Assembly: GCA_013336285.1 (NCBI GenBank)
Contig: JAAXTX010000001.1
Coordinates: 20,201 to 84,200 of the forward strand
Reading direction: 5' to 3'
DNA from: Candidatus Moraniibacteriota bacterium
GTDB lineage: Bacteria > Patescibacteriota > Minisyncoccia > Moranbacterales > UBA1568
DNA: 64,000 bases
In this document: one piece after another, positions 7,837 to 35,625 of the stretch
Position numbering within the stretch: the first letter of the stretch is position 1
How the letters are laid out: each line of letters opens with the position of its first letter
Translations under genes and position numbers: made by a program
Notes under the pieces: generated by a model
Databases searched by the model: none
What the model was told of the DNA's origin: nothing
The model's input: only the letters and a program-made list of their open reading frames with translations

Positions 7837-8517
7837 TCACAGGACATCCACGATTTTCGGTTTTCGTTCGGAAAAAGAATAAAGCCTGGCGGGACGGCTC
7901 TGCCCCGATTTCCGGATCTTCCCGGTCTCCTTGACCAGGTCGATATCCAGGATTTTCTTACGGAAGTTCCGTTTGTCAAGTTCGTGACCCAGGATGATCT
8001 CATACGCCGTCTGCAGTTCGGTGAGCGTGAATTCCTTCGGCAACAGTCCGTACGCGATATTCGAGTACCCGAGTTTGTTCCGAAGCCGGTCGATTCCCAC
8101 GGAAACGATCTTCGTATGATCGAACGCGAGCTTCGGTAGTTTGGCCGTATCGTACCAGGCTATATCGGAATAGTATTCGATGGTCGCGGGCAGGCATCGG
8201 TCGCTGTTCACGAGCGCGAAATACGCGACCGAAACGCTGCGACCGCGGACATCGCGGTCGACGCCGCCGAACGCATACAACTGTTCGAGATAGATGTCGT
8301 CGACGCCGGCTTTCTCGGAAAGCACCCGTTCCGCCGCCTGATCGAGCGATTCTTCCGGTCGGACAAGACCTCCCGGAAGTGCCCATTTTCCCTTATACGG
8401 TCCGCTGCCGATCCTAATAAGCAGGACCCTGAGCGCCCCGTCGATTACGGAGAAAATGGCGGTATCGACCGCGATGAGAATCGACTGGAAGTACTGCGGC
8501 ATATCGGTTTTTTTCAT
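7837..8517 (-). CDS. nrtR: NrtR-like transcriptional regulator of NAD metabolism (degenerate Nudix domain + C-terminal winged-helix domain)
   Basis: N-terminal Nudix fold with degenerate Nudix box (GGLVRPEESLDQAAERVLSEKAGV). C-terminal segment FTLTELQTAYEIILGHELDKRNFRKKILDIDLVKETG....RPARLYSF matches the conserved wHTH of Nudix-related transcriptional regulators. It is the last gene of the pnuC-nadR operon. Confidence 0.7.
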   Translation of the reverse strand: MKKTDMPQYFQSILIAVDTAIFSVIDGALRVLLIRIGSGPYKGKWALPGGLVRPEESLDQAAERVLSEKAGVDDIYLEQLYAFGGVDRDVRGRSVSVAYFALVNSDRCLPATIEYYSDIAWYDTAKLPKLAFDHTKIVSVGIDRLRNKLGYSNIAYGLLPKEFTLTELQTAYEIILGHELDKRNFRKKILDIDLVKETGKIRKSGQSRPARLYSFSERKPKIVDVL

Positions 8518-8587
8518 ACGGAAAGGTAAGAAGTGTATCGTTTACAGCATACTCCGGCGGATCCAATACCGTCAATCGGACATTTTT

Positions 8588-10379: not shown

Positions 10380-10420
10380 ATTGTTAGTGTATTATACACA
10401 CTATATAAATGATGTCAAAT
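10380..10420 (-). promoter_or_regulatory. consensus sigma70-type promoter (-35 TTGACA, 16-nt spacer, -10 TATAAT) with overlapping palindromic operator TAGTGTATTATACACACTA, driving pnuC-nadR-nrtR
   Basis: Minus-strand reading is ggaTTTGACAtcatttatatagtgtgTATAATacactaac. The 40-nt core is almost identical to the cassette at 25331-25380. The palindrome half-sites TAGTGT/ACACTA overlap the -10 element, a typical repressor position. Confidence 0.55.
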
Positions 10421-15988: not shown

Positions 15989-16124
15989 ATCCCTCCCTGT
16001 CTTTTGTTGTGAAAAAACATGTTCAGCCCTCTTATTACGGAGCCGAAAAACCGGAATCGAACCGCTTCCATTCCGCTTTTTCGGCGGGAAAGATATTTAC
16101 CTTTCCCGCGAAACCCTTCATGGG

Positions 16125-16829
16125 CTAAAGAACTATCTGTTCGACGATCAACGCACCGCTCTGTTGCATGGAAAACAGCGCGAACAGTTCGCTGAGATCT
16201 CGCGGGTGCACTCCGGGCAAATCATAGGTCACGACCGCATCTATCGGGATGATGACCTGCAGGTCCGACGGAATGAACCCTCTCGTCCGCAGATTCAGGA
16301 TCGCAAGTACCGTTTCCATCACGCAGATATCAGTGCATATGCCGCCGACAATGAGTGTCTTGATCTGACTCGCATTGATCCATTCGATGAATCCGGTAAG
16401 TTTGCCGATATCTCCCACTATGCCGTTATTGCAATCTTTGCGAAGCAGGAATACGAAACAGCTTTTCTCGGTCCACCTGAGCGGCTCGATAATGGCACTT
16501 TCGGGAGTTCCCAGAACGCAGTGTTCCGGATAGACCCCTTCCCGCTGACCAGCCTCATGACCTTCGGCATACATGACGACCGAGGCTTTGATCCAGTTCA
16601 GATATTCCAGCAATCGGACGCATTCCGCGACCATCGCCGGTACCTCACTGTCATCTTTCGGAGGGGACAACGGCCCGCAACCCGGCGTACAGAATCCGTC
16701 CACCAAGTCGATGAACGCGCCCCCTACCGTATTCTCAAGGTGGCGGATATCGTATGCGTCGACGATATTCAGTCCGACTCCATGCCGTTTCGCGAGTTCG
16801 CGAAACTTTTCCGCCTTTTTACTCTGCAT
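16125..16829 (-). CDS. isochorismatase-family cysteine hydrolase (PncA-like nicotinamidase candidate)
   Basis: Catalytic-Cys region TLIVGGICTDICVMETVLAI typical of the isochorismatase/nicotinamidase fold. Start at internal MQSKK with an AAGGAGAAG SD. Confidence 0.6.
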   Translation of the reverse strand: MQSKKAEKFRELAKRHGVGLNIVDAYDIRHLENTVGGAFIDLVDGFCTPGCGPLSPPKDDSEVPAMVAECVRLLEYLNWIKASVVMYAEGHEAGQREGVYPEHCVLGTPESAIIEPLRWTEKSCFVFLLRKDCNNGIVGDIGKLTGFIEWINASQIKTLIVGGICTDICVMETVLAILNLRTRGFIPSDLQVIIPIDAVVTYDLPGVHPRDLSELFALFSMQQSGALIVEQIVL

Positions 16830-17011
16830 ATTCTTCTCCTTTTTTTGTGATACGTTTTTTGATACACGGTTATTTTTTAGGAACCCTGAACGGTCACGGG
16901 ATAAGCCCAAGCTACGTCGGAAAAGACATTCCCCCGACAAAAATTGTCTTGAATTGGAAAATAATGGGGACCGATGCATTCGATATCGGTCCCCGACCTT
17001 TCAAAACGTAC

Positions 17012-18543: not shown

Positions 18544-19647
18544 TTACGGTAATACGAATTCCAGAAACCTGATCGGCCCCCAGAGTTCGACTCTCAAATC
18601 CTGTAGCATTTTATGCATCTCCCAGGCGTCCTGTGCCCGCTGAATCGGACTTTCCCTCACGAGAAACTCCAGAAATCTTGCGAATCCCGGGGTCGTCCCG
18701 TGTGGCATCCGGTTCGTCTTCACGTTCCCACCGAGCGCGTAAATCATGCTTTTCCCGACAGCGTATAGGTCCGATGACGGCAACGGCGGTTTTCCTTCGG
18801 CGACTTCCGACGGACTGTAATCCTCGTTAAGCACCTTGAACCGCTCACCTGCTTTCTGGCCACCGATCGCATAACTCCAATCGACGAGCGAAAGATTATG
18901 ATCGCGAGGTCGGATCATGACATGCGCCGGCTCGATATTGCCATGAATGACTCCTCGGGAATGAACATACCCTACGACACTCAGGAGACGCGTAAGCATC
19001 CATGCGACGTGTTGTTCAGGTATACCGTTCCGATAACGGTCCGACTCCCTGATAGCCACAAGGTCGTAATAGCCGTCCAGCATCTCCAGGATAAGAGCCT
19101 GACGTCCGTCCTCGGCCTTGAAACGGTCGATCATCATCGGTAGATGCTTGTCCTGTGCTCCCGGATTTTCCTTGAGTCTTCTCAGTGTCCGGATCTCGTT
19201 TTGCATGAGATCGTTGTCCGCCGGATCATCGACCAGCTTCAGCACGATCTTCCGCTCGGTCATCGCGTCGATGCCGTAGTACACGGTCGAAAGATCCCCC
19301 TGGGCCAGACGCGAGCTGATCTTGTACTCCCGATCTCCGACACGGATGGAAAAACTCTCTTCCGCCGTCTCATCGGGAACCGTGGAGCCGTAGACGCCCG
19401 CCTCGATTCTCACCTTTGCCTTCTCAAAGAGCTCCGAGAGCCTCTTGAACGCCCCGTCAGCATCGCTTTTTCTCCGTGAATTCCGATCCGGATGAACCGT
19501 TTTCGATAGGTTTCGATACAGGCGTTTCACTTCGGTCAATTTGTCCCCGACGCCCGTAAGCATACCGAAAATATCTTCCGGTCCGGTCGCGGAACCTATC
19601 CTCTCGGAAAGGATTTCGAATTCCGTTTCACTGACCATATCCAACAC
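18544..19647 (-). CDS. J-domain (DnaJ-like) fused to a divergent Ser/Thr protein-kinase-like domain
   Basis: N-terminal J domain with an HPD motif (KRLYRNLSKTVHPDRN). Kinase fold follows: glycine-rich GDLSTVYYG, VLKL lysine, catalytic loop IHGNIEPAHVMI (HGN in place of HRD) and DWS in place of DFG. Confidence 0.55.
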   Translation of the reverse strand: MLDMVSETEFEILSERIGSATGPEDIFGMLTGVGDKLTEVKRLYRNLSKTVHPDRNSRRKSDADGAFKRLSELFEKAKVRIEAGVYGSTVPDETAEESFSIRVGDREYKISSRLAQGDLSTVYYGIDAMTERKIVLKLVDDPADNDLMQNEIRTLRRLKENPGAQDKHLPMMIDRFKAEDGRQALILEMLDGYYDLVAIRESDRYRNGIPEQHVAWMLTRLLSVVGYVHSRGVIHGNIEPAHVMIRPRDHNLSLVDWSYAIGGQKAGERFKVLNEDYSPSEVAEGKPPLPSSDLYAVGKSMIYALGGNVKTNRMPHGTTPGFARFLEFLVRESPIQRAQDAWEMHKMLQDLRVELWGPIRFLEFVLP

Positions 19648-19797: not shown

Positions 19798-22248
19798 CTA
19801 TTCAGAATTCCTGTACAGCCCCAACCGTTCTATGTACTCGACGACACCCCGAGGGACGAGATCGTCTATCGATTCACCTCTTGCCAGACGTTCCCGTACC
19901 ATGGTTCCCGACCCTATGATGGGACCCATACAAATCGATTCGGAAACGGGAGGCAATTCTCCGGGAGATATCTCGTGACCCGGACGATCGACGACCACCC
20001 ACTGCAGCGTCTTCCAGATGACCGGACCATGCGTCCAGGTCCTCTGGATATCGGACTTCCCATCAGCCCCCCTGGTGACAAGGTCGGAACCGACCGCGAA
20101 CCAGATATCGGCATCGGGATACCGCTCCGCATACCGCTCCGACAGATGATAACTCGGCGTATATGTCTTATCCCGGATGTCGGTCAGGTCCACGACGACA
20201 CGGTCCAGACCACCGAACGCGATTTCCGACATGACACCGCGATGCATCGGATCGATGACATTCGCAGACGCCTTGTCAGGGCGTTCCCCGCACGGCATCA
20301 CGATTACGAGATCGAACATTTCCGTGAGTACCTTCGCTATGCCGACATGGTGGTTACACGGCGAATTGAAGCTGCCTCCATAGACGGCGATTCTCCGCTT
20401 TCCTCCGTTCCAAGTGCGACCGGCAAGCAGATCCCGTTTCAGACGTTCGTACCGCAACGTCCGCATCACACCGAGCATCGATTCCCGGAAGTCATATCCG
20501 AACGATCTGCGGGACACCTTTATGATAGGTGGGGCCTGCACCCGTTTGCGGACGGAACCGATAAACAGCTCCCAACACCGCTCAAGGTCTTTGACGAACG
20601 TTTCCTTGGTCGGGAACAGTCGGTCCAGCGTTCCTGTATCGAGTTTCATTTCCGCTTCGAGCCGGCCGGTCGCATACAGGTTCAACACCCATTCCGGTCC
20701 CTTCAGGAATTCCACGAACGCCCGCACCAGCTCGTCATGATACCCGCGACGATGCAGGTTCCCATAATCGAACGGGTCGGCCCCCGTCTCTGAAAGCTCC
20801 GCCATCGGCGCTATCGTGAAACATCGATCCGGAATGACCGGGTTCGGGAATACCTTGCGGTTCATATGATCCGCCAACTGGTATACCTCACGTTTCACGA
20901 GATCGCCTATCGGAAGGACGAATCCTGCGATATCGCCGTACATGGTCCCATACCCGAACGCGAGCTCAACCTTGTTCCCGTTTCCGATGAACACCCCACC
21001 GATTTCCTCTGTCTTTGCGGCAAGGATCTCCATGCGTACACGTGCCTGGATATTCGAGTATGCCCGCGTACCGGGTTTACAACCCGCCTTTGCCGCGATC
21101 GCATCGACAAGTTCGCCGATAGGAATCGTTTCGACGGGAACATCCAAACGACGAGCGATATCATACACTAATCCGAGTGTTTCATCGGAAGTATTCTCCG
21201 TCGGCATCGTGACCAGGAACACATTTTCTTTTCCGAGCACCTTGACCGACAATGCCGCCGTAGTAGCGGAATCGATACCGCCCGAGAGCCCAATGACCAC
21301 CTTGCGCATCCCGGATGGAAGCGTTTGGAACTGTTCATAAAAGGCGAAACTCAGGGCATTATACAGATCGGACGTATCGTCCTGGTCCACCGAAGCTATC
21401 GATGGCATATTATCCGCGAAGGTGACATCGGATGTCCCGGAAACGTACGTTCCGGACACGTGCACGATCTTCCCCTGCGAATCATACACGGTCGAACATC
21501 CGTCGAACGTTATGATGTTCTTTCCGTTGTTCTGTATCCCCACGTTGTTCACGTAGATGAGCGGAACCTTGCATTCCGCAAGCAGCATGCGCGCGACCTC
21601 GTTTCGGACCAGGTTCTTATGCCAGTCGTACGGCGAAGAAGACAGGTTGATTATGATGTCCGCCCCTTCCTCCACCAGACGGGCTCCCGGATTGCAGGCA
21701 TGATGCGTATGCCACATGTCCTCGCATATGATGATTCCCAAACGGATCGTCTTTCCCTGGAAAGTCATCTTGATCGGACGAAACGACAGCGGGTCGCCCG
21801 ATTCGAACGATTCTTCCTTCCTGGAGAAGAAATGCCTGTCATCCTCGAATACGCCGTAGTTCGGATGATTCGTCTTGATGACCTGACCGAGCATTACCCC
21901 GTCCCGGACCGCGATCGCCGCGTTCGATATCCTTCGCCGCCCGTTCTTTCCAGTCTTCCCACTTGCGGCAACCAGACTTCCGAACACCACGACGATGTCC
22001 TTTCCGACCGTCGATTCGCGGATCCGATCGTTCCACTCGAGCACGTCGTCGACGAACCCGTCGTTCCCGAACACATCCCCAAGACAATACCCGGGCACGC
22101 TCAGTTCGGGAAACACGATCAGAGGGATGCCGCGCTTCTCGGCGTCGGCGATTTCACGGACGATATGCTCACCGTTCACCCGTGAATTCCCGGGAACGAT
22201 CTTCACCTGGCAGATCGCCGCCTTGAGTCCGTTCAACTTCCTATCCAT
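19798..22248 (-). CDS. nadE: glutamine-dependent NAD+ synthetase (CN-hydrolase + NAD synthetase domains) fused to a C-terminal NadD-like NaMN/NMN adenylyltransferase domain
   Basis: N-terminal nitrilase-like domain (PELSVPGYCLGD). Central PP-loop SGGIDS ATP-pyrophosphatase. C-terminal RIAVYGGSFNSPCNHHVGIAKVL nucleotidyltransferase (H/T-x-G-H-like) domain. 816 aa in a single ORF. Confidence 0.75.
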   Translation of the reverse strand: MDRKLNGLKAAICQVKIVPGNSRVNGEHIVREIADAEKRGIPLIVFPELSVPGYCLGDVFGNDGFVDDVLEWNDRIRESTVGKDIVVVFGSLVAASGKTGKNGRRRISNAAIAVRDGVMLGQVIKTNHPNYGVFEDDRHFFSRKEESFESGDPLSFRPIKMTFQGKTIRLGIIICEDMWHTHHACNPGARLVEEGADIIINLSSSPYDWHKNLVRNEVARMLLAECKVPLIYVNNVGIQNNGKNIITFDGCSTVYDSQGKIVHVSGTYVSGTSDVTFADNMPSIASVDQDDTSDLYNALSFAFYEQFQTLPSGMRKVVIGLSGGIDSATTAALSVKVLGKENVFLVTMPTENTSDETLGLVYDIARRLDVPVETIPIGELVDAIAAKAGCKPGTRAYSNIQARVRMEILAAKTEEIGGVFIGNGNKVELAFGYGTMYGDIAGFVLPIGDLVKREVYQLADHMNRKVFPNPVIPDRCFTIAPMAELSETGADPFDYGNLHRRGYHDELVRAFVEFLKGPEWVLNLYATGRLEAEMKLDTGTLDRLFPTKETFVKDLERCWELFIGSVRKRVQAPPIIKVSRRSFGYDFRESMLGVMRTLRYERLKRDLLAGRTWNGGKRRIAVYGGSFNSPCNHHVGIAKVLTEMFDLVIVMPCGERPDKASANVIDPMHRGVMSEIAFGGLDRVVVDLTDIRDKTYTPSYHLSERYAERYPDADIWFAVGSDLVTRGADGKSDIQRTWTHGPVIWKTLQWVVVDRPGHEISPGELPPVSESICMGPIIGSGTMVRERLARGESIDDLVPRGVVEYIERLGLYRNSE

Positions 22249-22387: not shown

Positions 22388-23488
22388 TCAAATCCTTACT
22401 GTCGACCTGACCATGTCCGACTGCTGATACGCCAACCCTGCCGCGAGCACATCGTATTCGTAACGGAACGCGACATCCTCGAGATCCGATTCGGAACGGA
22501 GCGCTTCCGCAAAGACGTCCGACGTGACATCGAGATCGATACAGAATACCTGGCTCGAGCCGCCCATCGTCCCGCAGAGAGTCGGATCCGACGAACTGAA
22601 CAGCTTGCCGAACCGCATCGTGGCGATATGTCCGTTTACCAGGACATGCGCCGGTTCGAGATGCCTGGCTACGATTTTCACGTCAAGCCCGGTTTCCTCA
22701 CCCAGTTCCCGGATAGCGGCATCCATCGGCGACTCGTAGTCTTCTATCGCTCCGCCGGGAATGGCGAGCCACCCTGGAAAATCCTTTTTCGACGGTTTTC
22801 TCCTGCCGCAAAGGATCATCTTTCCGTTCCCTCTCGATGAACGGCATCGGACGACGATATCCACCGTCTGCCTTCCCGGTATGAACGGCGTCCCCGCATC
22901 GGCGAGCGCCTCGCAGATCATACTGAATCCGCCGAAACTTCCCATAAGCGCGATCGTGCCGGTAGCCGCGATCTTTGCGAACGATTCGTAATCATTTCCC
23001 AGGATCGCGTTCCTCAGATCGGTCGCGTGATACGGAAAACGAAATTTCTCGGCCAGATCCTTCTCCGGATTGATGACGGACAGCGAGCCCGGTATGCCGC
23101 CGCGACTCCTGAATTCGGAAAGGATCTGCTCCTCGTTGCCGGTGACGTAATCCGTCACCCGCTCGAATCCGGGAAAGCCGGTCGTATGCGCCCACCACTT
23201 ATCGAAATCACCGGGAAAATCCTGCAGGTGCACGAAGGAGACTCGCTCGGAATCGATGCCTTCGTTGATCAGGCTCCACAGGATCATCTTCTCGCGGAAT
23301 ACCGCCAGGAGCGGGTGTTTCGACACGCCGACCTCGTAGCAACTCCCGATGCCGATCACGAGACTATCCACCTGTGTCAGGAGCCATACCATGAAAAGGA
23401 TATGCCCCTTATGCGGCGGACTGAATCGTCCGATGACGTATGCCGTCCTTCCGGTCGGTCCGGAAACGATATGAACCCCGTCTTCCAT
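22388..23488 (-). CDS. nadM: bifunctional NadM-type NMN adenylyltransferase / Nudix ADP-ribose pyrophosphatase
   Basis: N-terminal GRFSPPHKGH nucleotidyltransferase motif. C-terminal canonical Nudix box GGAIEDYESPMDAAIRELGEETG. Confidence 0.8.
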   Translation of the reverse strand: MEDGVHIVSGPTGRTAYVIGRFSPPHKGHILFMVWLLTQVDSLVIGIGSCYEVGVSKHPLLAVFREKMILWSLINEGIDSERVSFVHLQDFPGDFDKWWAHTTGFPGFERVTDYVTGNEEQILSEFRSRGGIPGSLSVINPEKDLAEKFRFPYHATDLRNAILGNDYESFAKIAATGTIALMGSFGGFSMICEALADAGTPFIPGRQTVDIVVRCRSSRGNGKMILCGRRKPSKKDFPGWLAIPGGAIEDYESPMDAAIRELGEETGLDVKIVARHLEPAHVLVNGHIATMRFGKLFSSSDPTLCGTMGGSSQVFCIDLDVTSDVFAEALRSESDLEDVAFRYEYDVLAAGLAYQQSDMVRSTVRI

Positions 23489-23606: not shown

Positions 23607-24950
23607 TCATACAACTACAACCTGTTTTTTTGAGCCCTCTTCTCCAAATATTTTCTTGAAGAGGGCGACCCTATCCGCCGGGCCGGTCGCTTTTTCCGGA
23701 TTATCGGAAAGTTTCACCGCAGGCACCCCGTTCGCTTCTGATACCTTACAGACCATGGAAAACGGACGGAATAAACCGAATGCCCCGTCATTCCTCGGCC
23801 AGAGTCCGCGACAGTCGTTCCCGACGAGCGTCCCCCAGCCATATGACAATGTCCCGACCGCTGACGCGTTCTCACGAGAACAACCGAGCATGGTGTCAGT
23901 ATCGAGTCCGTCGCTCGGTAAAATCATCTTCGTCATCGGATCGACGCCGTGTCGCTTCCACCACTCAACGGTGACCCGGACAGCCTCGTTCGGCTCCATC
24001 GAGTCCGGACGGACTCCTTTCCAGTCCCTCGCGAACGACGCGGGCGCATGCCTATAGAAGTGAGCGGTCCCATACGTATCCGGAAGAAGGATACTCATAT
24101 CGGGGCCGAAGTAGTCGTACCACTTCTGTGACATGGTGAATGGCGCTTGAAATATCCTATCGTGATCATTCCCCGCCAGACACCCTTCGATCATATACAG
24201 CTCGTGAGCGTTCGTACCTTTCGGATTCGCGCTCCCATGCTGCATGGCCAGAAGGACATTCGAAGTCCCGAGACACTGCGACGGAAGCATTTCCGACATG
24301 TACCTCATCACGATCTCCTGGAAAAATCGGCTCTGTCTCCGCCTCGTATCGAAAAGGATGAAGGAAAGCGCGCGTTCCTCACGCAACGCCTTCGCCTTTT
24401 CGAAAAGCCTGGCGACCATACCCGTGTATATCGACAGAATCTCCGATGAGGAAAGCTTCGCGTTCAGGATCAGATGGTAGTAATAAAGCTCCGAAACGAT
24501 CACCATCGCAATTATTTCCCAGAACGTCACCTTCCATGAGGGACCGGTGAAGGTCAGAACATACCCGCCTTCCTGTTTCTCCAGTATGAATGGAGGCAAG
24601 ACCGGACGAGACATCTCTTCCAGAAAATCATCCGACCGGATCAGGCGAGTTCGCCCGTCACTTCCTGTCATTCCTGCCAGGAACGACCGTTCCGCCGGCG
24701 TAAGACAAAGAGCCCTTGCCGCCTCAAGTTGTTCACGAAGCACATCTTCCGGGATGATGTCGGCCAGACGGATATACTTGTCACGAATGATAAGCTTGAA
24801 GGTCGTCTCGACATCCCTGTATTCGGCATGATCGAAATAGAATACGGCCATGAACCATTTGTACACGTCCGTATCGATCAGGCTTTTGACGATCGCTTCC
24901 CCGTTCGGGATACAGAATATATCCCGCAGACCGAGCCCTTGTAATTTCAT
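23607..24950 (-). CDS. pncB: nicotinate (or nicotinamide) phosphoribosyltransferase, PncB-like
   Basis: N-terminal LIDTDVYKWFMAVFYF matches the LLDTD.YK motif of type II PRTases of the NAPRT/NAMPT family. 447 aa. Confidence 0.65.
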   Translation of the reverse strand: MKLQGLGLRDIFCIPNGEAIVKSLIDTDVYKWFMAVFYFDHAEYRDVETTFKLIIRDKYIRLADIIPEDVLREQLEAARALCLTPAERSFLAGMTGSDGRTRLIRSDDFLEEMSRPVLPPFILEKQEGGYVLTFTGPSWKVTFWEIIAMVIVSELYYYHLILNAKLSSSEILSIYTGMVARLFEKAKALREERALSFILFDTRRRQSRFFQEIVMRYMSEMLPSQCLGTSNVLLAMQHGSANPKGTNAHELYMIEGCLAGNDHDRIFQAPFTMSQKWYDYFGPDMSILLPDTYGTAHFYRHAPASFARDWKGVRPDSMEPNEAVRVTVEWWKRHGVDPMTKMILPSDGLDTDTMLGCSRENASAVGTLSYGWGTLVGNDCRGLWPRNDGAFGLFRPFSMVCKVSEANGVPAVKLSDNPEKATGPADRVALFKKIFGEEGSKKQVVVV

Positions 24951-25154: not shown

Positions 25155-25210
25155 GTCCGTTACTTAGTGTTGTATAAACAATATATATCAGTTATTACTG
25201 ATTGTCAAGA
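25155..25210 (-). promoter_or_regulatory. consensus sigma70-type promoter (-35 TTGACA, 17 nt, -10 TATATT) for the pncB-nadM-nadE... operon, with an operator-like ACACTAAGTAA half-site at the start site
   Basis: Minus-strand reading is tcTTGACAatcagtaataactgataTATATTgtttatacaacactaagtaacgg. Confidence 0.5.
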
Positions 25211-25330: not shown

Positions 25331-25380
25331 GATTTGACAGGATTTATATAGTGTGTATAATACACTTAGTAAGTTCACAA
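25331..25380 (+). promoter_or_regulatory. consensus sigma70-type promoter (-35 TTGACA, 16 nt, -10 TATAAT) with overlapping palindrome TAGTGTGTATAATACACT, driving the isochorismatase-vWA-PP2C-kinase operon
   Basis: gatTTGACAggatttatatagtgtgTATAATacacttagtaag is nearly identical to the pnuC promoter at 10380-10420. A third related motif, TACTTAGTGTGTTACTTAC, lies at 25508-25530. Confidence 0.55.
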
Positions 25381-25607
25381 GGGAAAGGACGGACAGGAAG
25401 ACGAAGGAGTCACTCAGACAACCGACGGGACCTATTTCATTCCCGGTATCGCTGCCTAAACGACTATTCCTCTCCCATACCGATGCCTTGGCATCGTATC
25501 TCCTTCCCTACTTAGTGTGTTACTTACATTATATAAGCATCTTTACAACTGGATAGGCAGACGAACAACATGGCCTGTTCGAAACGTCAACAAAAAAGGA
25601 GACTACG

Positions 25608-26423
25608 ATGAAAGCACATCTTCTCATCATCGATCCGCAGAATGATTTCATGGACAGTCCGAATTCATCCCTGCCCGTGACCGGTGCAAACGACGACATG
25701 CGTCGCGTCGCCACTCTCGTGAAGCGAGTCGGCAAAAGACTCGACGATATTCACGTCACGCTCGACTCACACCGCGTCATCGATGTCGGCCATCCCGGAA
25801 TGTGGAGGGATCAGGACGGCAATCAGCCGAATCCATTCACCATAATCGGATCGGACGACATCAGGAACCGTATCTGGGCACCCAGAAGGGAGCACCTCTG
25901 GAAAAAAATGCTCGAATACGCGTTGGCGCTTGAGGCGGGGAAGAAATACCCGCTCATGGTCTGGCCCGAACACTGCGTTATCGGCACACCGGGACACAAT
26001 GTCCAGGCGGAACTGATGGCGGCGCTCATGGAGTGGGAACGCAAGGAATTCGCGAATGTCGACTACGTCGCGAAGGGCACGAACGCTTTCACGGAGCACT
26101 ACGGCGCGCTCATGGCCGAGGTTCCCGATCCGGACGACCCTTCGACCGGACTCAATGTCGGACTGCTCACGGTCCTCGCGGAAGCAGACATCATCGGCAT
26201 CGCCGGGGAGGCGCTCAGCCACTGCGTGAAGTCTACCGTCGATCAGATCGCGGAGAATATCGGCGAGGAACACATCAAGAAGTTCCATATCCTGACCGAC
26301 TGTACCAGTCCCGTTTCCAAAGTCGGCGACGGACCTGACTTTCCCGCCATTGCGGGCGAGTGGCTCGACGACATGAAAAAGCGCGGTGCGAAACTCGTCA
26401 CATCGGAAAACTTCCTACCCTGA
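25608..26423 (+). CDS. isochorismatase-family hydrolase (second PncA-like paralog)
   Basis: LLIIDPQNDF N-terminal motif. Catalytic-Cys region IIGIAGEALSHCVKSTVDQIA. SD AAAGGAG upstream. Confidence 0.6.
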   Translation: MKAHLLIIDPQNDFMDSPNSSLPVTGANDDMRRVATLVKRVGKRLDDIHVTLDSHRVIDVGHPGMWRDQDGNQPNPFTIIGSDDIRNRIWAPRREHLWKKMLEYALALEAGKKYPLMVWPEHCVIGTPGHNVQAELMAALMEWERKEFANVDYVAKGTNAFTEHYGALMAEVPDPDDPSTGLNVGLLTVLAEADIIGIAGEALSHCVKSTVDQIAENIGEEHIKKFHILTDCTSPVSKVGDGPDFPAIAGEWLDDMKKRGAKLVTSENFLP

Positions 26424-26471
26424 ACCGGGTCACGGAACGGTATAACTAACAGTTTAAAAATGGAGGCAATC

Positions 26472-27218
26472 ATGCCAAGACTCGAAGAAGGAATGGAACA
26501 GCACCGGATCGGCGGATCGAACTTCACCTTTCAGGGAACCCGAATCGACCGACTCGGAGCGACGGAATATACGCTCGTCACAATAGCAATCGATGTGACC
26601 GGATCGACCTCGAACTTCGCGGACGAACTTCGCGAAGCCCTCATAGCGGCGGTGCGATCCTGTAAGAAATCTCCGAGAGCCGATTACCTGATGATCCGCG
26701 TGATACTGTTCTCAAGCAGCATCGGCGTACGCGAGATACACGGTTTCAAGGAGCTTGCCGACATCGATCCGAACGCTTATGCGGCATTCAAACCGGACGG
26801 TTTCACACCGCTCTACGATGCCGCCTACTCGGGCATCGGCGCGATGGTCGACTACGGCGCACACCTGATGGAAAACGATTACCTGACCAACGGCATCATC
26901 TTCATCATCACTGACGGCGGGGATAACGATTCCAAAACGGCATCCCCCGCCATGATCAGGCAGAAGCTTGAGGAGGTGAAACTCGAGGAGAAACTCGAGT
27001 CGCTGGTCAGTATCCTGATCGGAGTGAACGCCCGACAGGCGAAGTCGCTCCTGGAGGATTTCCAAAGGGAGGCGGGTATCGGAAAGTACATCGACCTCGA
27101 GGATGCCTCCGAAGGGTCGCTCGCGAAATTGGCCGAATTCGTCTCACGGTCCGTATCGAGCCAGTCTCAGGCGGTCGGCACCGGCGGACCGAGCCAGAAC
27201 ATATCAGCCGTCATCTGA
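26472..27218 (+). CDS. vWA domain protein (TerY-like)
   Basis: MIDAS-like DVTGSTS, plus IFIITDGGDND. ~250 aa. First gene of a vWA-PP2C-kinase triad. Start set at the Met placed 6 nt after a GGAGG. Confidence 0.65.
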   Translation: MPRLEEGMEQHRIGGSNFTFQGTRIDRLGATEYTLVTIAIDVTGSTSNFADELREALIAAVRSCKKSPRADYLMIRVILFSSSIGVREIHGFKELADIDPNAYAAFKPDGFTPLYDAAYSGIGAMVDYGAHLMENDYLTNGIIFIITDGGDNDSKTASPAMIRQKLEEVKLEEKLESLVSILIGVNARQAKSLLEDFQREAGIGKYIDLEDASEGSLAKLAEFVSRSVSSQSQAVGTGGPSQNISAVI

Positions 27219-27294
27219 ACCGGCAAACCTGCACAAGGGGGTGACGAAGAATTCGTCGCCCCTTCTTATTGTAAAACAAAAAAAGGAGTCTGCC

Positions 27295-28173
27295 ATGAGC
27301 ACGATATTTTCGACTGATCACTATTTCCACATCGGCGAGTGGCATTCCCACGCCGGTAAACCATGTCAGGATCACGCCCTTTCGGAAGTCGGGAGTCGGT
27401 CGGCATTCATCAGTATAGCCGACGGATGTTCCAGCGGAAAAGAGACGGACATCGGCGCTCGGATCCTGAATCTCTCGACATTGGCCGCGCTCAGGGAAGA
27501 AACGCATTCCCATGAAAACCTCTCCGAGGTCGGCGCCGGAAGGATCGCGATGAGGCAGGAGCTTCTTCTCGAACAAGCGGGCAATCTGCTCGGACTCAAG
27601 GAGGATGACTTGCTCGCGACATGTCTACATGCGGCGTTGAACGAGGACGGGGGTTACGTATCAGTGCAAGGCGACGGAGTCGTCGCGATCAAGTTTCACG
27701 ACGGAAGACTTCTCCTCCGCCGATTCGAATGGGCGAACAATATGCCGTTCTATCCGGCTTATCGAAGCAGACGACTCCAGGATTTTATCTCCGCGCATGG
27801 CGGAGATGTCGATGCGCTACGATTCTCGGAAACGATATGGACAGGAAACGGGGCCGGGGGGTGGGAACAGGAAACCGTTCTTGAACACCGTATCAGGGAC
27901 GGGATCGAGGGAATAGTCATTCCGCTCGCCCGAGGAGAAGAGATCGAATTCGTCGCCCTCTTCTCGGACGGGGTCACGCAGATGAAAGAATTGGATTGGA
28001 AAGAGGCGGTCTGCCGGTTTACGGCATTCAAAAGTACGGCCGGAGAATTCCTCAAGCGTCGTATGATACGCGCCATCGGCGAGTCGGAACGGGCCGGCGG
28101 CGGACCGCTCGACGACATCGCATGCGCCATCATACGCAGTGAAACGAAAAAACAAACGGAGGAAAAGACATGA
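27295..28173 (+). CDS. PP2C-family Ser/Thr protein phosphatase
   Basis: ISIADGCSSGKETD (PP2C metal-binding D-G motif). Later acidic motifs SDGV and DDI. AAGGAG SD. Its stop overlaps the kinase start (ATGA). Confidence 0.7.
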   Translation: MSTIFSTDHYFHIGEWHSHAGKPCQDHALSEVGSRSAFISIADGCSSGKETDIGARILNLSTLAALREETHSHENLSEVGAGRIAMRQELLLEQAGNLLGLKEDDLLATCLHAALNEDGGYVSVQGDGVVAIKFHDGRLLLRRFEWANNMPFYPAYRSRRLQDFISAHGGDVDALRFSETIWTGNGAGGWEQETVLEHRIRDGIEGIVIPLARGEEIEFVALFSDGVTQMKELDWKEAVCRFTAFKSTAGEFLKRRMIRAIGESERAGGGPLDDIACAIIRSETKKQTEEKT

Positions 28174-29906
28174 AACAGGGACAGGATACGCTCACGGTAG
28201 TTCTTTCCGGTCGCGGAAAGACATCTCTTCCTCCGAGCAGCTATGTCGCCACCGGAGGAGAAGGCGCCATTTATAGGATCGGCGACACGATCGTAAAGAT
28301 ATATTCCGACCGGAAAAAAATGACGGGTGACCGCATGGAAGAAAAAATACGGCTTCTCTCGGGAATCAGACATCCGTACATAGTCGCGCCAAGAGGATTG
28401 GTAACGGATACGAAAGGCGCTCTCATCGGATACTACATGGATGCCATCGACGGAAACGGCTTCTCGGAAGTATGCGCGCCCGCATTCTGGCATCGCTCCG
28501 GATTCACGAGAGACGACGCGTGCACACTGACGGACAGGATGAGGGACGCTGTACGGGCGGCTCATGGATACCATGATGCCGTCATGGTCGATCCGAACGA
28601 GACCAATTGGATCGCGATACTCGGCGGTCAGAAAGGACCGGAGCCGAGAGTCATCGACGTGGACTCATGGGCGATCGGGAATTGGCCCGCGAAAGCCATC
28701 ATGCTGTCTATCAAGGATTGGCATAGCAGGGGGTTCGATCACCAGACCGATTGGTTTGCCTGGGGTGTCGTCAGTTTCCAGCTCTTCACCGGGACACATC
28801 CTTACAAGGGAACCCTTGATGGATTCAAAAAGGGCGACCTGGAAGGAAGAATGAAACAGAACGCTTCCGTATTCACCCCCGGAGTACGCTTGAATCAATC
28901 CGTCCGGGATTTCGGAACGATACCCGGAAGACTGCTCGACTGGTACGTCGAGACGTTTCAGCACGGCGAGCGGACCGTTCCGCCTTCCCCGTTCGACACC
29001 GGTGTGGCTACCGCGAAAAGGGCTCTGGTAAAAAGGATCCTCGCCGCAAAAAACGCGCAAGTCGTGTACGACAGGCTTTTCTCGGAGCCTGGAGAAACGG
29101 CGATCCGTATATTCCCTTGCGGGGTCATTCTGCTCCGATCGGGACGCCTCATCGATTTATCGACGAAAAAAACCGTCGATAGCGGGATTTCCGATGTAGC
29201 CGAAGTCATCGCGACAGCCGACGGTTGGCTCATCGGTAACCCGAAAGGAAACGGGACGGGATTCCGATTCATACACGGAAAAACGTCACTGAAGGAAGAC
29301 CTCGCGTCTCCGGTACCTGCGTCGGGACTGCTCAGATTCGAGAACAGGCTATTCCTGAAAACGGAACGCGGACTGACCGAGATTCGATTATTGCGTCTCG
29401 GCAAGACCCTGCTTACGGCCGGAAATACCTGGGGCACCATGCCATCCTCGACACGCTGGTTTGACGGTGTCGGTATCCAGGACGCGTTCGGGGCGACGTA
29501 TGCCATCGCGCCGTTCGGGGAATCGGGTTGCGCGCACGTCCGCATTCGGGAATTGGACGGTCAGAAAACACTTACGGCAAAAGCCGGCGAACGCTTCCTG
29601 GCGGTAGTCGTGCTGGATGCGGACGGCAAGTATCGGAAACACGAGTTCGCCTTCGATAAGACTTACGGGAATTATCGGGTATGGACCGGGGAAGTGGATA
29701 CTGCCGACCTCAATATCGCCATCCTGCCACGCGGCGTCTGCGCGACGATTGTCGAAGACGGCGAGCTGAACATACTCGTACCGGGAAGCGGCGACACTCG
29801 GAAAATCTCAGACCGGGATATCGGCACCGATATGTTTCTTGAACACTGGAACGAAAAGACGGTGTACATGCGAAACGGGGACGTCTGGCAGGTCAGACTG
29901 AAATGA
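28170..29906 (+). CDS. Ser/Thr protein kinase (TerY-P-type) with ~300-aa C-terminal extension
   Basis: Gly-loop GGEGAIYRIG, VKIY lysine, catalytic segment HDAVMVDPNETNWI, DVDSW in place of DFG. 578 aa. Confidence 0.7.
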   Translation: MKQGQDTLTVVLSGRGKTSLPPSSYVATGGEGAIYRIGDTIVKIYSDRKKMTGDRMEEKIRLLSGIRHPYIVAPRGLVTDTKGALIGYYMDAIDGNGFSEVCAPAFWHRSGFTRDDACTLTDRMRDAVRAAHGYHDAVMVDPNETNWIAILGGQKGPEPRVIDVDSWAIGNWPAKAIMLSIKDWHSRGFDHQTDWFAWGVVSFQLFTGTHPYKGTLDGFKKGDLEGRMKQNASVFTPGVRLNQSVRDFGTIPGRLLDWYVETFQHGERTVPPSPFDTGVATAKRALVKRILAAKNAQVVYDRLFSEPGETAIRIFPCGVILLRSGRLIDLSTKKTVDSGISDVAEVIATADGWLIGNPKGNGTGFRFIHGKTSLKEDLASPVPASGLLRFENRLFLKTERGLTEIRLLRLGKTLLTAGNTWGTMPSSTRWFDGVGIQDAFGATYAIAPFGESGCAHVRIRELDGQKTLTAKAGERFLAVVVLDADGKYRKHEFAFDKTYGNYRVWTGEVDTADLNIAILPRGVCATIVEDGELNILVPGSGDTRKISDRDIGTDMFLEHWNEKTVYMRNGDVWQVRLK

Positions 29907-29966
29907 TTCGTAAACGGAGCCTTGCATCGAATGATGTGGGGCTCTTATTATATCCGATGACGATTT

Positions 29967-32337: not shown

Positions 32338-33627
32338 TTAGGAATCTCCCTTTGTTTTTAGGTTTCTCAGTATGAACAACGATTCCCGCATCTCTTCCGT
32401 AAGCGTTTCCGCCTTGATCCGCTCCGTTCGAATATAGGCCCCTCCGGTATCCGTCTTCTCCAGGTGTTTCCATAAGACGGCGGTCGCGGTTTTCAGGGAA
32501 GCTCCGTATCGCCCGCGATTCAATTCGAATCTGGCCCGAACCAGTTTTCCGGATAGCGAATCCATCATGAGTCCCGGATTCGTCCGTCTGAACACCCCCT
32601 TCAATTCCTCGAGCAGAAAATCCGACGTACCGTCTTTCTCCGGCCAGTCGTCATGGACCTCCTTCTCATATTCCTCCGGAACAAAAACTATCATGGACAG
32701 TTCCCTGCTGAGAATCAACTCCTTGTTCCGGACGACACTCTCCCAAATGGGGCCGATATGGCGATTGATCAGTCTGGTGACGAATCTCCTTCGAAAACCG
32801 CGGATATGCCGATCGAAATACGATGCCATCTCGCCGATATCACGGATTCCGCTCATCGGATTCACCATTCGGAACTCATCGATGATACGATCCGGCGTGA
32901 TATGCTCATCCAGGAGCACCAAAAGGTAATGCCAGTGATATCCTTCCATGTCCTCATGTGTGGACAGACGCGATCCGAGATGCCTTCTCTTGGACGGATT
33001 CCGACGATTTCCGGATTTACGTGATACGCCGACGACCGGAAGTCCGATATCCTTTCCGAGGACAGTTCGCAGGACTTCCGCAAGAACCGAGGCCTTTTCC
33101 CATTCGACGGAACTCTCCAGCCGTTTTATATGTCCGTGATTCGCCAGCTCGGGTCCGCGCACCTCGAAAAGCACGTTCGTCGCCCCCGTGATCGCGTCGA
33201 TATATTCACCTCGCGCGAGCGAGAACATCGCCGAAACCGCGAACAGACCCCGGAGTTTCACTGCGGCATGCGGAAAAGCCTCACGAAGATGACGAAACAA
33301 CCGGTCCCACGCATCCTCCGGATTCGAATCAGAAATCGAATCGCCAGCCGCACCGTCCGACAGCATGATTGCCGCAAGAACCTCATCCGTCAGGGGAACC
33401 CACGATTCCGCGAACGGCTTCACGAATTCGACAAGCTGACGGGCGAAACGTTCTTTCACACCGAGCTCCGGCTTCCGTCGATCCAAGAACACGACAAGCC
33501 TATCGACCGCACCCTTGCTCTTCGGATATCCGGTCAGTGACAGGATGTATCCGGTCGTAAGCTCCGATGCCGACATATCAAAGACAGCTTCCCAGGCCGG
33601 GAAGACACTCTTCTTATGACTGGCCAT
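32338..33627 (-). CDS. hypothetical protein (429 aa); contains an HUH-like segment GYHWHYLLVLL
   Basis: No P-loop or other recognisable catalytic motif except an H-hydrophobic-H-hydrophobic3 pattern. Start set at MASHKK, which has an AAGAAGGGGG SD. Confidence 0.4.
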   Translation of the reverse strand: MASHKKSVFPAWEAVFDMSASELTTGYILSLTGYPKSKGAVDRLVVFLDRRKPELGVKERFARQLVEFVKPFAESWVPLTDEVLAAIMLSDGAAGDSISDSNPEDAWDRLFRHLREAFPHAAVKLRGLFAVSAMFSLARGEYIDAITGATNVLFEVRGPELANHGHIKRLESSVEWEKASVLAEVLRTVLGKDIGLPVVGVSRKSGNRRNPSKRRHLGSRLSTHEDMEGYHWHYLLVLLDEHITPDRIIDEFRMVNPMSGIRDIGEMASYFDRHIRGFRRRFVTRLINRHIGPIWESVVRNKELILSRELSMIVFVPEEYEKEVHDDWPEKDGTSDFLLEELKGVFRRTNPGLMMDSLSGKLVRARFELNRGRYGASLKTATAVLWKHLEKTDTGGAYIRTERIKAETLTEEMRESLFILRNLKTKGDS

Positions 33628-33759
33628 ATATACCCCCTTCTTTTTCGTTGTTCGAATGATAAGGAACCTTCGATAATTCTTCACATAAAAGTGCCGTTTT
33701 TGCAAGCGTCGGGACAAAGAATGCTATACTGTGAATGACTCATCACGATACATCAATCT

Positions 33760-34398: not shown

Positions 34399-34875
34399 CT
34401 ATGCGCGATACGTGTCGAACACATAGGAACCGGGAAGAATATCTTTGCCCGCCTGGATCACCACGGCATTCGCGACTTCCTGAGGCGAGATGAACCGTGA
34501 AACCTTGGACCGGAATTCCTCTTTCTCCGTCGGATGCCCGTTCCAGATCCGCGTCTCCACTGGCCCGAGCAGAAAATCACATACGAAAAGTCTTCCCTCG
34601 CGTCCCTCCTTGGAATTGATGCTCTTCCCGAGATTATGCAGGAACGCGAACGCCCCGGCATTGAACGCACAGCCCGGGAACCCACGCTCGACGCTTTGTC
34701 CGAGCATATTGATGATTCTCCCTCCGTAAGCCATCATCGTCTTTGCGGAGCAAATCACGTACACGTGCGCGTCCAGAAAAGGCCGGACGGCGAGATATCC
34801 CTCGAAATCGAGATTGTCGACCTGGATGAATAGCATAATCGAGAGGTGAACGGACGAAAATCGCTTATGATTCAA
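34399..34875 (-). pseudogene. truncated paralog (C-terminal ~55%) of the SDR-like gene at 10514-11182
   Basis: Translation aligns with the C-terminal half of the SDR-like protein, for example YLAVRPFLDAHVYVICSAK...RIINMLGQ...VCDFLLGPVETR. The N-terminal Rossmann part is absent. The 5' end overlaps the TrmB-like gene on the other strand. Confidence 0.4.
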
Positions 34876-35625
34876 GATAGACTCAGACAGATCGGTCTTT
34901 CCGATAACGAGATATCGGTATATCTTTCGATATTGGAAAATGCCGAAATATCCCCTTCAATGGTCGCAAAAATGACCAACCTCAGTCGTCCGTCGGTCTA
35001 CGCTATCGGAAAGAAGCTCGCAAGAAAAGATTTGATATCGGAGGAAGACCGTTGCTCGGGTCTGCGTTTTCTGGCCTCTCCCCCGGATGCAGTAGTCCGT
35101 GAAGTCGAATCCGAAAAGCGCGAAGTCGAATCAAGACTCGAGTTGGCAAAAGCGCTGGTTCCCGAACTCAACCTCATCCCGAAATCACAGAATTACTCCG
35201 TACCGAAAGTCAGATTCATCGAGGAATCCCTGCTGAAGGAGTACCTGTATCAGAAAGCGTCCGACTGGGACAGAAGCGGTCTCGACCGCGACGCGACCTG
35301 GTGGGGCGTGCAGGACAGTTCTCTTATCAAACACTATGGCGAATGGCTCTCCTGGTACTGGAAACGTGCCGATACCAAGCTCCAGTCAAAGATGGTCACG
35401 AACGAAAAGGAGGAGGGCCATTCGTTCGAGGGACAGACATCGTTCAGGCGCTCGATGCGATTCTGGAACAAAGGGGGGAACATCGGGGTGACCCAGGCCA
35501 TTTTCGGCGACTACGTCCTTATCGTGAACACGCGTACGAAACCACATTCCCTCTTCGAAATCCATGACGCCGTCACCGCCGAGGGTCTCCGTCAGGTTTT
35601 CCGTGGTATCTGGGAAACGTTGTGA
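34846..35625 (+). CDS. TrmB-family HTH transcriptional regulator
   Basis: N-terminal wHTH (LSDNEISVYLSILENAEISPSMVAKMTNLSRPSVYAIGKKLARKDLI) plus ~170-aa C-terminal domain. One of four paralogs in the window. Confidence 0.6.
   Translation: MNGRKSLMIQDRLRQIGLSDNEISVYLSILENAEISPSMVAKMTNLSRPSVYAIGKKLARKDLISEEDRCSGLRFLASPPDAVVREVESEKREVESRLELAKALVPELNLIPKSQNYSVPKVRFIEESLLKEYLYQKASDWDRSGLDRDATWWGVQDSSLIKHYGEWLSWYWKRADTKLQSKMVTNEKEEGHSFEGQTSFRRSMRFWNKGGNIGVTQAIFGDYVLIVNTRTKPHSLFEIHDAVTAEGLRQVFRGIWETL

Follow-up and report, generated by a model that had tools for sequence, protein, structure and literature searches.

Triads of a von Willebrand factor A (vWA) protein, a PP2C-family phosphatase and a Ser/Thr kinase are widespread in bacteria, including Escherichia coli. 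In TerY-P systems, a TerY-like vWA protein, a PP2C phosphatase and a Ser/Thr kinase are thought to form a phosphorylation switch, and the kinases are defined by either a C-terminal zinc ribbon (Ter/CoCoNuT type) or an OB fold (Gao type) (PMC11090510; the TerY-P definition of Anantharaman et al. 2012 is used here as relayed in the consulted part of that article). The triad of E. coli K-12 consists of yegL (vWA), pphC (PP2C) and yegI (kinase). YegI is an active, Mn2+-preferring kinase in which a DSD motif is indispensable and a swap to DFG inactivates the enzyme, and the serine that follows DSD is an autophosphorylation site needed for activity (bioRxiv 10.1101/819920). Here we describe a triad of this kind that is preceded by a predicted nicotinamidase in a metagenome-assembled genome of Candidatus Moranbacteria; the 64,000-nucleotide stretch of bacterial chromosome that was analysed is referred to as the window. 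The four-gene unit is real, and giant phages and uncultured bacteria, well over a hundred in all, keep its order. We propose, with a probability of about one half, that this cassette provides the entry step of NAD salvage by the Preiss-Handler route and places that step under phospho-regulation.

Work on NAD regulation and on phage NAD metabolism also bears on the locus. According to the consulted sections of the NrtR regulon study (PMC2330246), the NrtR operator is a 21-bp palindrome with a GT-N7-AC core that overlaps promoters or lies in leaders, ADP-ribose frees NrtR from DNA, and the operons described hold pncA, pncB, nadD and nadE, with no kinase, PP2C or vWA gene in those passages. The literature on phage NAD reconstitution comprises NARP1-3 and never mentions a nicotinamidase, PncA or PncB. 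Broad surveys of viral NAD systems and jumbo phages give only NadV, NadM and NadR as phage NAD-synthesis genes, and never name PP2C, TerY or isochorismatase. A first reading of this DNA, made from the sequence alone (the sequence-only reading), had recognised no described counterpart of a triad led by a PncA-like hydrolase in an NAD context, and searches of the accessible literature on nicotinamidase/vWA/PP2C/kinase combinations, NrtR, candidate phyla radiation (CPR) bacteria, NARP and jumbo phages likewise found no description of the cassette; an earlier mention is possible, subscription papers being mostly outside that literature.

Four genes in a fixed order in bacteria and phages

The genes had been read as co-directional and partly overlapping, and all four open reading frames (ORFs) were found on the plus strand (Table 1). 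Once gene starts had been refined from homologue N-termini and ribosome-binding sites, overlap was left at a single junction, where the PP2C stop and the kinase start share the expected ATGA at 28170-28173; the remaining junctions are short gaps. The vWA and PP2C genes had appeared to overlap because the longest ORF was taken. The vWA gene starts at 26472 (MPRL..., with GGAGG 5 nt upstream and an N-terminus as in homologues) and not at 26460, and the PP2C gene starts at 27295 (AAGGAG upstream) and not at the maximal ORF start of 27103. No hydrophobic segment was found by hydropathy in any of the four proteins.

A scan of GTDB with the kinase alignment, in which each species was represented by a single genome, yielded 80 bacterial loci, and hydrolase, vWA, PP2C and kinase genes follow one another in this order on one strand in all 71 loci that have enough upstream sequence. 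Carriers are mostly Patescibacteria (Parcubacteria groups, Saccharibacteria and Gracilibacteria), and some are labelled Proteobacteria or cyanobacteria, labels that may reflect binning or naming errors. In IMG/VR, 69 viral loci were detected, often on contigs of 100-550 kb, with kinases 24-32% identical to that of the window; 65 of these loci have the full set of four genes. When metagenome contigs were anchored on the hydrolase only, vWA, PP2C, kinase and propeller sequences lay downstream in 33 of the 34 loci with at least 3.6 kb of downstream sequence, and the single exception is a locus that was cut short. Among GenBank phages, the hydrolase subfamily occurs in four records, three of which are huge phages with the triad and the fourth a 6.5-kb fragment. 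Members of this hydrolase subfamily practically always come with the triad, and the four genes are one conserved, mobile unit.

An ordinary pncA could in principle lie beside an unrelated YegLKI-like triad by chance. Genes for PncA on their own are common in NrtR regulons, as described in the consulted part of PMC2330246, and no hydrolase-triad fusion was found, both of which would fit such an accident. However, the same order recurs in three independently anchored samples (71/71, 65/69 and 33/34) and holds down to 25-30% identity across bacteria and phages, and the hydrolase subfamily keeps to the triad. Chance adjacency is effectively refuted by these comparative data. The identity range of 25-55% also argues against the loci being copies of one recent mobile element.

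Only two cultured carriers were found, Bradyrhizobium sp. Ai1a-2 (L076) and B. embrapense SEMIA 6208 (L077). The Ai1a-2 cassette lies inside a 132-kb predicted provirus in IMG/VR (L092, the same locus), and three further provirus contigs of 110-121 kb (L091, L093 and L094) carry kinases 42-43% identical to that of the window. Bradyrhizobium cassettes have an extra ORF of 93-128 amino acids (aa) between PP2C and kinase, and the huge phage L001 has a 123-aa ORF at that place. Neighbours of the B. embrapense cassette include DUF3268, an RNase T-like exonuclease, a HerA-like ATPase and a radical-SAM protein. Extra ORFs interrupt the cassette in the huge phages LR745208 and LR756511 (L001, 8060-10557; L002, 2006-4473 and 5216-8699). 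These inserted ORFs, for example those of 592 aa and 211 aa in L001, which have no Pfam match, may be additional components or unrelated insertions.

Table 1. Coordinates of the cassette, its control sites and other features in the window
Feature	Position	Strand	Remarks
Nicotinamidase-type hydrolase	25608..26423	+	271 aa, isochorismatase superfamily
TerY/YegL-type vWA protein	26472..27218	+	248 aa
PP2C-family Ser/Thr phosphatase	27295..28173	+	292 aa
YegI-type Ser/Thr kinase with beta-propeller	28170..29906	+	578 aa; propeller probably seven-bladed
Sigma-70 promoter, TTGACA-16-TATAAT	25334..25361	+	12/12; leader ~240 nt
NrtR-type operator (TAGTGT-N7-ACACTT)	25347..25368		overlaps -10 box of cassette promoter
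NrtR-type operator 2	25512..25533		in leader, ~75 nt before hydrolase ATG
NrtR-type operator 3	25164..25185		overlaps -10 box of divergent promoter
Divergent near-perfect promoter facing pncB	25208 to 25180	-	
GC-rich stem-loop between vWA and PP2C	27236..27264	+	13-bp stem, from terminator scan; terminator- or attenuator-like
Terminator-like hairpin after kinase	29916..29945	+	convergent with uvrD/pcrA
pncB, nicotinate phosphoribosyltransferase	23607..24950	-	PF04095/PF17767; NF003704 2.4e-85; TIGR01514 1e-55
NadM-type adenylyltransferase fused to Nudix	22388..23488	-	
NadE-NadD fusion	19798..22248	-	816 aa; CN-hydrolase glutaminase, NAD synthetase and NaMN adenylyltransferase
NrtR repressor	7837..8517	-	Nudix and NrtR winged helix, PF21906 6e-27; predicted cassette regulator
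Operator-like site near pnuC	10384-10405		perfect, upstream of pnuC
Operator-like site near nrtR	8530-8551		2 mismatches, upstream of nrtR
pnuC	9580-10290	-	
nadR	8588-9775	-	
Tyrosine recombinase	6738-7796	+	phage integrase family, 1e-43
Nudix-like protein	13983-14960	-	
ADP-ribosylglycohydrolase	14882-15988	-	
Second isochorismatase/nicotinamidase-like protein	16125-16979	-	PF00857 3e-14
500-aa protein	17012-18514	-	no family match
J-domain (DnaJ)-Ser/Thr kinase fusion	18544-19647	-	367 aa
TrmB-family regulator	34846-35625		
TrmB-family regulator	39200-40012		
TrmB-family regulator	62340-63422		
Radical-SAM protein	37641-39089		
Radical-SAM protein	52464-53984		with B12-binding and DUF4070
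Large ORF	58838-62269	+	1143 aa; no Pfam family at E <= 0.001
Large ORF	1966-4365	-	799 aa; no Pfam family at E <= 0.001
Large ORF	230-1708	-	492 aa; no Pfam family at E <= 0.001
Large ORF	32338-33717	-	459 aa; no Pfam family at E <= 0.001

The leading hydrolase

The proposal that the first gene encodes a PncA-like, isochorismatase-family hydrolase was borne out by a family profile built from 23 members, three of them from phage. Among all PDB sequences this profile matched only nicotinamidases, including yeast Pnc1 (2h0r, 6e-11), 29iv (1e-9) and Mycobacterium tuberculosis PncA (2e-7), with further matches to the P. horikoshii, A. baumannii and Leishmania enzymes. The catalytic triad D9/K156/C206 aligns to the triads of yeast Pnc1 and M. 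tuberculosis PncA and is invariant in 23 bacterial and phage hydrolases, and the metal ligands D53/H55/H62/H122 (WPEHC) are also invariant across bacterial and phage members. Compared with canonical PncA proteins of 180-215 aa, the hydrolase carries an extra conserved insertion of ~55 residues (~63-118) and a C-terminal extension. Its family has many members and is closely conserved, with 65-73% identity among the best 120 homologues. This pattern points to the nicotinamidase branch of the isochorismatase superfamily, and the hydrolase would be expected to deamidate nicotinamide.

The vWA protein, phosphatase and kinase

The identities given to the three triad proteins from sequence were upheld, although profile searches delivered only one of them. 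The phosphatase matches Pfam PF13672 (PP2C_2) at 1.4e-15, whereas the vWA protein has no Pfam match and the kinase only sub-threshold ones, and Pfam, NCBIfam and PHROGs gave nothing usable for either; both were established by AlphaFold2 models, Foldseek and profile comparisons. In the phosphatase, D26, D43-G44, D127, D225-G226 and D273-D274 are at least 97% conserved across 76 bacterial and 72 viral homologues.

Homologues of the vWA protein are named YegL by JGI, a name that we take to denote COG4245, the TerY-type vWA group. Searches of PDB sequences found no match for it, even with the family profile. Its AlphaFold2 model (pLDDT 87.3, pTM 0.85) matched vWA and integrin I-domains in all of the top 50 Foldseek hits in the PDB (E ~1e-7), the best structural match being NorD, a metal-insertion co-chaperone. 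The DxTxS metal-ion-dependent adhesion site (MIDAS) that had been noted from the sequence is D41-x-T43-x-S45, joined by T112 and D148; D41, S45, T112 and D148 do not vary in any of 74 bacterial and 73 viral homologues. The protein ends in a Ser/Gln-rich last helix and a disordered tail (FVSxSVSSQSQAxGTGGPSQ), with Ser225/227/229/232/241 at least 95% conserved in the same homologues. This Ser-rich helix presumably sits where the allosteric alpha7 helix of integrin I-domains lies.

The AlphaFold2 model of the kinase (pLDDT 86) consists of an N-terminal bilobed kinase (residues 1 to ~280), a short low-confidence linker and an all-beta C-terminal domain (~288-578). This domain is the C-terminal extension first estimated at ~300 aa; it spans ~290 residues with ~29 strands, consistent with seven blades, and folds as a beta-propeller, probably a seven-bladed one. 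Foldseek ranked the kinase and WD40 halves of LRRK2 first, then kinases and propellers, and the family profile aligned to PDB Ser/Thr kinases over residues 22-214 (E 2e-4). Kinase and propeller occur together in 151 of 155 ORFs with either domain, and the full-length proteins (555-616 aa) among the best 150 propeller matches of 711 cluster representatives have the propeller in their C-terminal half. The propeller is specific to this kinase family. In the BFVD predicted viral structures, the whole kinase and propeller model has a sole full-length match, A0A8S5RYX0 from Myoviridae sp. ctNQV2, a 550-aa 'non-specific serine/threonine protein kinase' (Foldseek E 6e-29).

The glycine loop, the lysine and the DVDSW that replaces DFG were all found as described, namely as GGEG, K43 and IDVDSW (D163/D165/S166); K43, D141, N143/E144, D163, D165 and S166 are conserved, phage copies included. 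In light of the YegI data, DVDSW is therefore a kinase-clade signature and not a sign of a pseudokinase. By analogy with YegI, the cassette kinase is probably Mn2+-preferring, and its Mn2+-dependent activity would include autophosphorylation at Ser166. The kinase is soluble, with no transmembrane segment and a maximum 19-residue hydropathy of 1.23, compared to 2.27 in YegI.

All four cassette proteins are predicted divalent-metal proteins (through the hydrolase site, the MIDAS, the PP2C aspartates and the YegI-type kinase), which together with the NorD match raises the idea of a metal-handling unit. In such a unit, the vWA protein and its MIDAS would load or sense the Mn2+, Fe2+ or Zn2+ of the nicotinamidase, with kinase and PP2C reporting metal status. 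The idea follows the original 'metal-sensing phosphorylation switch' proposed for TerY-P, as quoted in the consulted part of PMC11090510, and PncA is reported to need metallochaperones in the part of PMC6941528 that we consulted. However, known vWA metal-insertion systems use MoxR-type AAA+ ATPases, none of which is present in the cassette, and its neighbourhoods lack metal-transport genes, with NAD enzymes and NrtR as the recurring partners. We consider a metal-handling role improbable.

NAD salvage genes around the cassette

The triad had been placed in an NAD/ADP-ribose island, and family matches confirmed both NAD and ADP-ribose genes around it. Divergent from the cassette, across a shared operator region, lies pncB, and the same strand carries the NadM-Nudix fusion and the NadE-NadD fusion, in which the last two NAD-synthesis steps are combined in one 816-aa polypeptide. 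With the hydrolase, these genes make up a complete Preiss-Handler route in the window. Patescibacteria are in general not known to make NAD de novo and are regarded as reliant on salvage.

At least one NAD gene (NrtR, PncB, NadE, NMNAT/NadD or Prs) lies within 10 kb of the cassette in 53 of the 80 bacterial loci, most often NrtR (37) and PncB (37), with NadE in 24. The closed Niyogibacteria genome CP066691 has the order nrtR-hydrolase-vWA-PP2C-kinase-nadD-pncB-prs-nadE on one strand. Among the viral loci, 28 of 69 have adjacent NAD genes, and in phage loci L100, L111, L112, L121, L137, L143, L147 and L157 a pncB, nadE or NMNAT gene stands between the cassette genes themselves. The sequence-only reading had allowed that such triads might never be linked to NAD-salvage genes elsewhere; the linkage in fact recurs in Patescibacteria and giant phages. 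That it persists through such divergence and a switch between types of host is difficult to account for unless a function is shared.

Promoter, operators and hairpins

The genes had been said to follow a regulated promoter, and a sigma-70 promoter with 12 of 12 consensus positions, overlapped by a repeated operator, was found in front of them. The 22-bp operator motif, TWAGTGT-N7-ACANTATA, is present in three copies in the intergenic region between cassette and pncB, and the window as a whole holds five matches when 0.15 would be expected by chance. The palindrome TAGTGT-N7-ACACTA, with at least 12 of 14 positions matching, lies upstream of the hydrolase in 40 of 74 loci, compared to none in 74 coding-region controls. 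The bacterial loci (1.3 Mb) contain 137 sites and shuffled sequence (2.7 Mb) contains 14, a ~20-fold enrichment. The NrtR encoded in the window is 53% identical to the cassette-adjacent NrtR of Niyogibacteria. From the operator motif and published NrtR biochemistry, we infer that ADP-ribose would relieve repression of the cassette by NrtR. Scanning the window for Rfam families and tRNAs gave no match, so no known riboswitch was detected in the 240-nt leader. An inverted repeat at 24940-24965/25593-25618 was rejected as a structure; it consists of the similar ribosome-binding and start regions of the divergent genes.

A further control element lies inside the cassette. Across loci L008-L087, the gap between vWA and PP2C folds better than shuffled sequence (z < -2) in 60 of 73 cases, with a median dG of -28 kcal/mol; many of the printed examples have a run of T after the stem, and the structure is kept while the sequences are unrelated. 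This stem-loop suggests unequal dosage, with abundant hydrolase and vWA protein and scarce, translationally coupled PP2C and kinase.

A model for regulated NAD salvage

In the mechanism we propose, a specialised nicotinamidase is paired with a dedicated YegL/PphC/YegI-type phospho-switch. The nicotinamidase would act as the first Preiss-Handler enzyme, in the sequence nicotinamide, nicotinate, nicotinate mononucleotide (NaMN), nicotinate adenine dinucleotide (NaAD) and NAD. NrtR would sit on the strong sigma-70 promoter of the cassette, in the leader and on the promoter from which pncB, nadM-nudix and nadE-nadD are read divergently, and ADP-ribose, a product of NAD cleavage, would release it and switch on both arms. 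The stem-loop after the vWA gene would then probably keep hydrolase and vWA protein abundant and PP2C and kinase scarce. The soluble kinase and the PP2C may act in reversible phosphorylation of two candidate targets, Ser166 of the kinase and the Ser-rich last helix and tail of the vWA protein, the latter being the most likely kinase substrate. Phosphorylation of this tail might, speculatively, change MIDAS binding, including MIDAS-dependent binding to the hydrolase, and the beta-propeller could serve as a docking or sensing domain for a substrate or ligand. The output, again speculatively, would be a gate on the activity or assembly of the nicotinamidase, and hence on nicotinamide flux into NAD. 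In giant phages the module, often together with phage pncB, nadE, nadD and prs, would rebuild NAD by the deamidated route.

A more specific form of this model, which we offer tentatively, is that the pair of PP2C and Hanks-type kinase and the MIDAS adaptor directly control a dedicated nicotinamidase as a regulated NAD-rebuilding system of Patescibacteria and giant phages. In phages, with PncB, NadD and NadE, such a system would be a fourth, deamidated NAD+ reconstitution route that counters NAD-depleting immunity.

Several observations weigh against the cassette being a phospho-regulated entry step of NAD salvage. The kinase substrate and the binding of vWA protein to hydrolase are predictions, and a fusion search found no gene fusions linking the four proteins. 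The window hydrolase falls below Pfam and NCBIfam thresholds: this copy has no match to PF00857, which is present in some homologues, and reaches PRK11609 (NF008623) at 3e-5 with 23.8 bits, where the cut-off is 174. The second nicotinamidase-like gene in the window could be the housekeeping PncA. No NAD gene lies within 10 kb in 41 of 69 viral and 27 of 80 bacterial loci, figures for which two query sets were used and in which many of the 27 are truncated contigs, and the Bradyrhizobium copies from IMG/VR proviruses are also without nearby NAD genes. The NrtR-type operator was not found in viral and Bradyrhizobium loci, and NrtR control is therefore specific to Patescibacteria-type loci. Finally, TerY-P-like triads occur as stand-alone antiphage systems (Gao 2020, as relayed in the consulted part of PMC11090510), which makes a role in conflict plausible.

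In a conflict system, the nicotinamidase would be the effector or sensor arm of a TerY-P-like switch, which would be antiphage in bacteria and serve counter-defence or superinfection exclusion in phages. Its action could be removal of nicotinamide, starving NARP1 and NARP2, both of which consume it, or alarm signals from NAD cleavage could be coupled to a response. The module is mobile, being carried on giant-phage contigs and in Bradyrhizobium proviruses (IMG/VR), and stands beside HerA-like ATPase, exonuclease and radical-SAM genes; its predicted ADP-ribose-responsive regulon holds the cassette alongside ADP-ribosylglycohydrolase, Nudix and a J-domain kinase that matches PD-T4-6 models. On the other hand, the vWA protein and PP2C drew no match from any PADLOC defence model, TerY-P included, with the cut-off relaxed to E <= 10. 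Patescibacterial copies of the module lie within core salvage operons that have rpoB and ftsW as neighbours, and its occurrence in at least 70 species-level genomes, with the hydrolase identity noted above, is unlike patchy, fast-evolving defence islands. Phages moreover place PncB and NadE inside the cassette, indicating NAD synthesis and not nicotinamide removal. We regard a conflict system, the main alternative to salvage, as rather unlikely, and for the phage copies it overlaps with the salvage model.

If the more specific form of the salvage model is correct, it would provide the first physiological function for the YegL-PphC-YegI/TerY-P class of triads. For Patescibacteria, phospho-regulated salvage would be a rare case of post-translational control in a reduced metabolism. 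In the cassette the triad has an enzyme as its constant partner, and both pathway and inducer are defined, so triad function becomes testable by asking whether it is a switch on the nicotinamidase and which phosphosite is involved. The presence of the module in dozens of phage contigs of 100-550 kb, in some cases with pncB and nadE inside it, suggests that phages might have a further NAD-rebuilding route against NAD-depleting defences, beyond NARP1-3.

Other features of the window

The window carries genes for PolA, HolA, RuvA, FemAB and a Mur ligase, a typical bacterial set, and the cassette kinase is identical to NCBI HGA31_00220. A mis-binned phage was rejected as the source because these bacterial housekeeping genes are present, and megablast of 18 kb against GenBank phages gave no match.

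Away from the cassette, pnuC, nadR and nrtR form a minus-strand operon with nrtR last, and this chromosomal operon is apparently under NrtR control, judging by its operator-like sites. PnuC and NadR are the pair recently named NARP3 in phages. Beside nrtR, at the edge of the NAD island, lies a tyrosine recombinase, which hints that the island may in part be, or once have been, mobile. A run of ADP-ribose genes (13983-18514) comprises the Nudix-like protein, the ADP-ribosylglycohydrolase, the second isochorismatase-like protein and the 500-aa protein. It resembles the ADP-ribosylglycohydrolase-centred systems under Nudix regulation for which Iyer et al. 2022 predicted a role in reversing ADP-ribosylation, and homologues of its Nudix-like, ADP-ribosylglycohydrolase and isochorismatase genes occur near the cassette in a few other loci. 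The adjoining J-domain kinase fusion matches PHROG 3043 'kinase' (5e-32) and many PD-T4-6 defence-kinase models (7e-22), and loci L013, L034 and L053 also have a homologue of it close to the cassette. The window also contains TrmB-family regulators, radical-SAM proteins and large ORFs without a Pfam family (Table 1).

Comparison with known systems

The triad had initially been assigned to the TerY-P type of Ter loci. Its three-gene make-up, order and logic are indeed those of TerY-P, but the closest relatives are YegL, PphC and YegI, with the Ter-locus and Gao-type TerY-P triads more distant. The TerY-P models of PADLOC match none of vWA protein, PP2C and kinase at E <= 0.01 or at E <= 10; E. 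coli YegL itself reaches PADLOC TerY only at E 0.03. The cassette was not filed as a TerY-P defence system because neither the strict nor the permissive threshold gave a match, and its kinase ends in a beta-propeller instead of a zinc ribbon or OB fold. There are no ter genes, restriction genes or DNA-processing partners among the ~40 window proteins scanned. The cassette further differs from TerY-P in that a nicotinamidase always precedes the triad, which is tied to NAD salvage.

Gene order in the cassette triad is the same as in the E. coli K-12 yegL, pphC and yegI genes. The kinase family aligns to YegI in hhalign with 96.8% probability (E 3e-10), pairing IDVDSW with IDSDSF and VDANELN with GDVNQNS, and common to both kinases are the GGEG loop, a non-HRD catalytic loop that retains the catalytic aspartate (D141), and D-x-D-S-[FW] where DFG would be expected. 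PP2C matches PphC by BLASTP at 1e-5. The vWA family aligns only weakly to YegL (hhalign E 2e-4, 44% probability), and the MIDAS and Ser-rich C-terminal helix are shared. YegI, in contrast, is membrane-anchored and differs in its C-terminal half, whereas the cassette kinase is soluble with a beta-propeller, and the E. coli yeg locus has an inserted yegJ and no nicotinamidase, NAD genes or NrtR. On these sequence comparisons, the triad appears TerY-P-like in logic and YegLKI-like in ancestry, which would put it outside the validated defence family.

The best whole-chain structural match of the cassette kinase is the kinase-WD40 region of LRRK2 (E 8e-10), at 9-12% identity and an rmsd of ~17 A over the two domains. 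This likeness is one of architecture only, with no ROC-COR or other LRRK domains in the cassette kinase.

With the NrtR-controlled pncA-pncB(-nadD-nadE) operons of Rodionov et al. 2008, in the sections consulted, the cassette has in common the repressor, the palindrome at the promoter or in the leader, PncA in first position, the partners PncB, NadD and NadE and, by prediction, ADP-ribose as inducer. The consulted operon table of PMC2330246 lists enzymes, transporters and nrtX/nrtY in NrtR regulons, and no vWA, PP2C or kinase genes. The cassette PncA also differs from the PncA of these regulons in forming a distinct long subfamily (271 aa, with the insertion) that is found only with the triad.

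The phage cassettes, which may counter defence, are likened by gene content to NARP1 (Adps and Namat), NARP2 (NadV and NMNAT) and NARP3 (PnuC and NadR). None of these pairs lies inside the cassette. The likeness is that giant-phage cassettes travel with pncB, nadE, nadD or prs as phage-borne NAD-rebuilding sets. Unlike NARP1-3, the cassette chemistry would be the deamidated Preiss-Handler route through nicotinate, and its vWA-PP2C-kinase triad has no counterpart in those systems.

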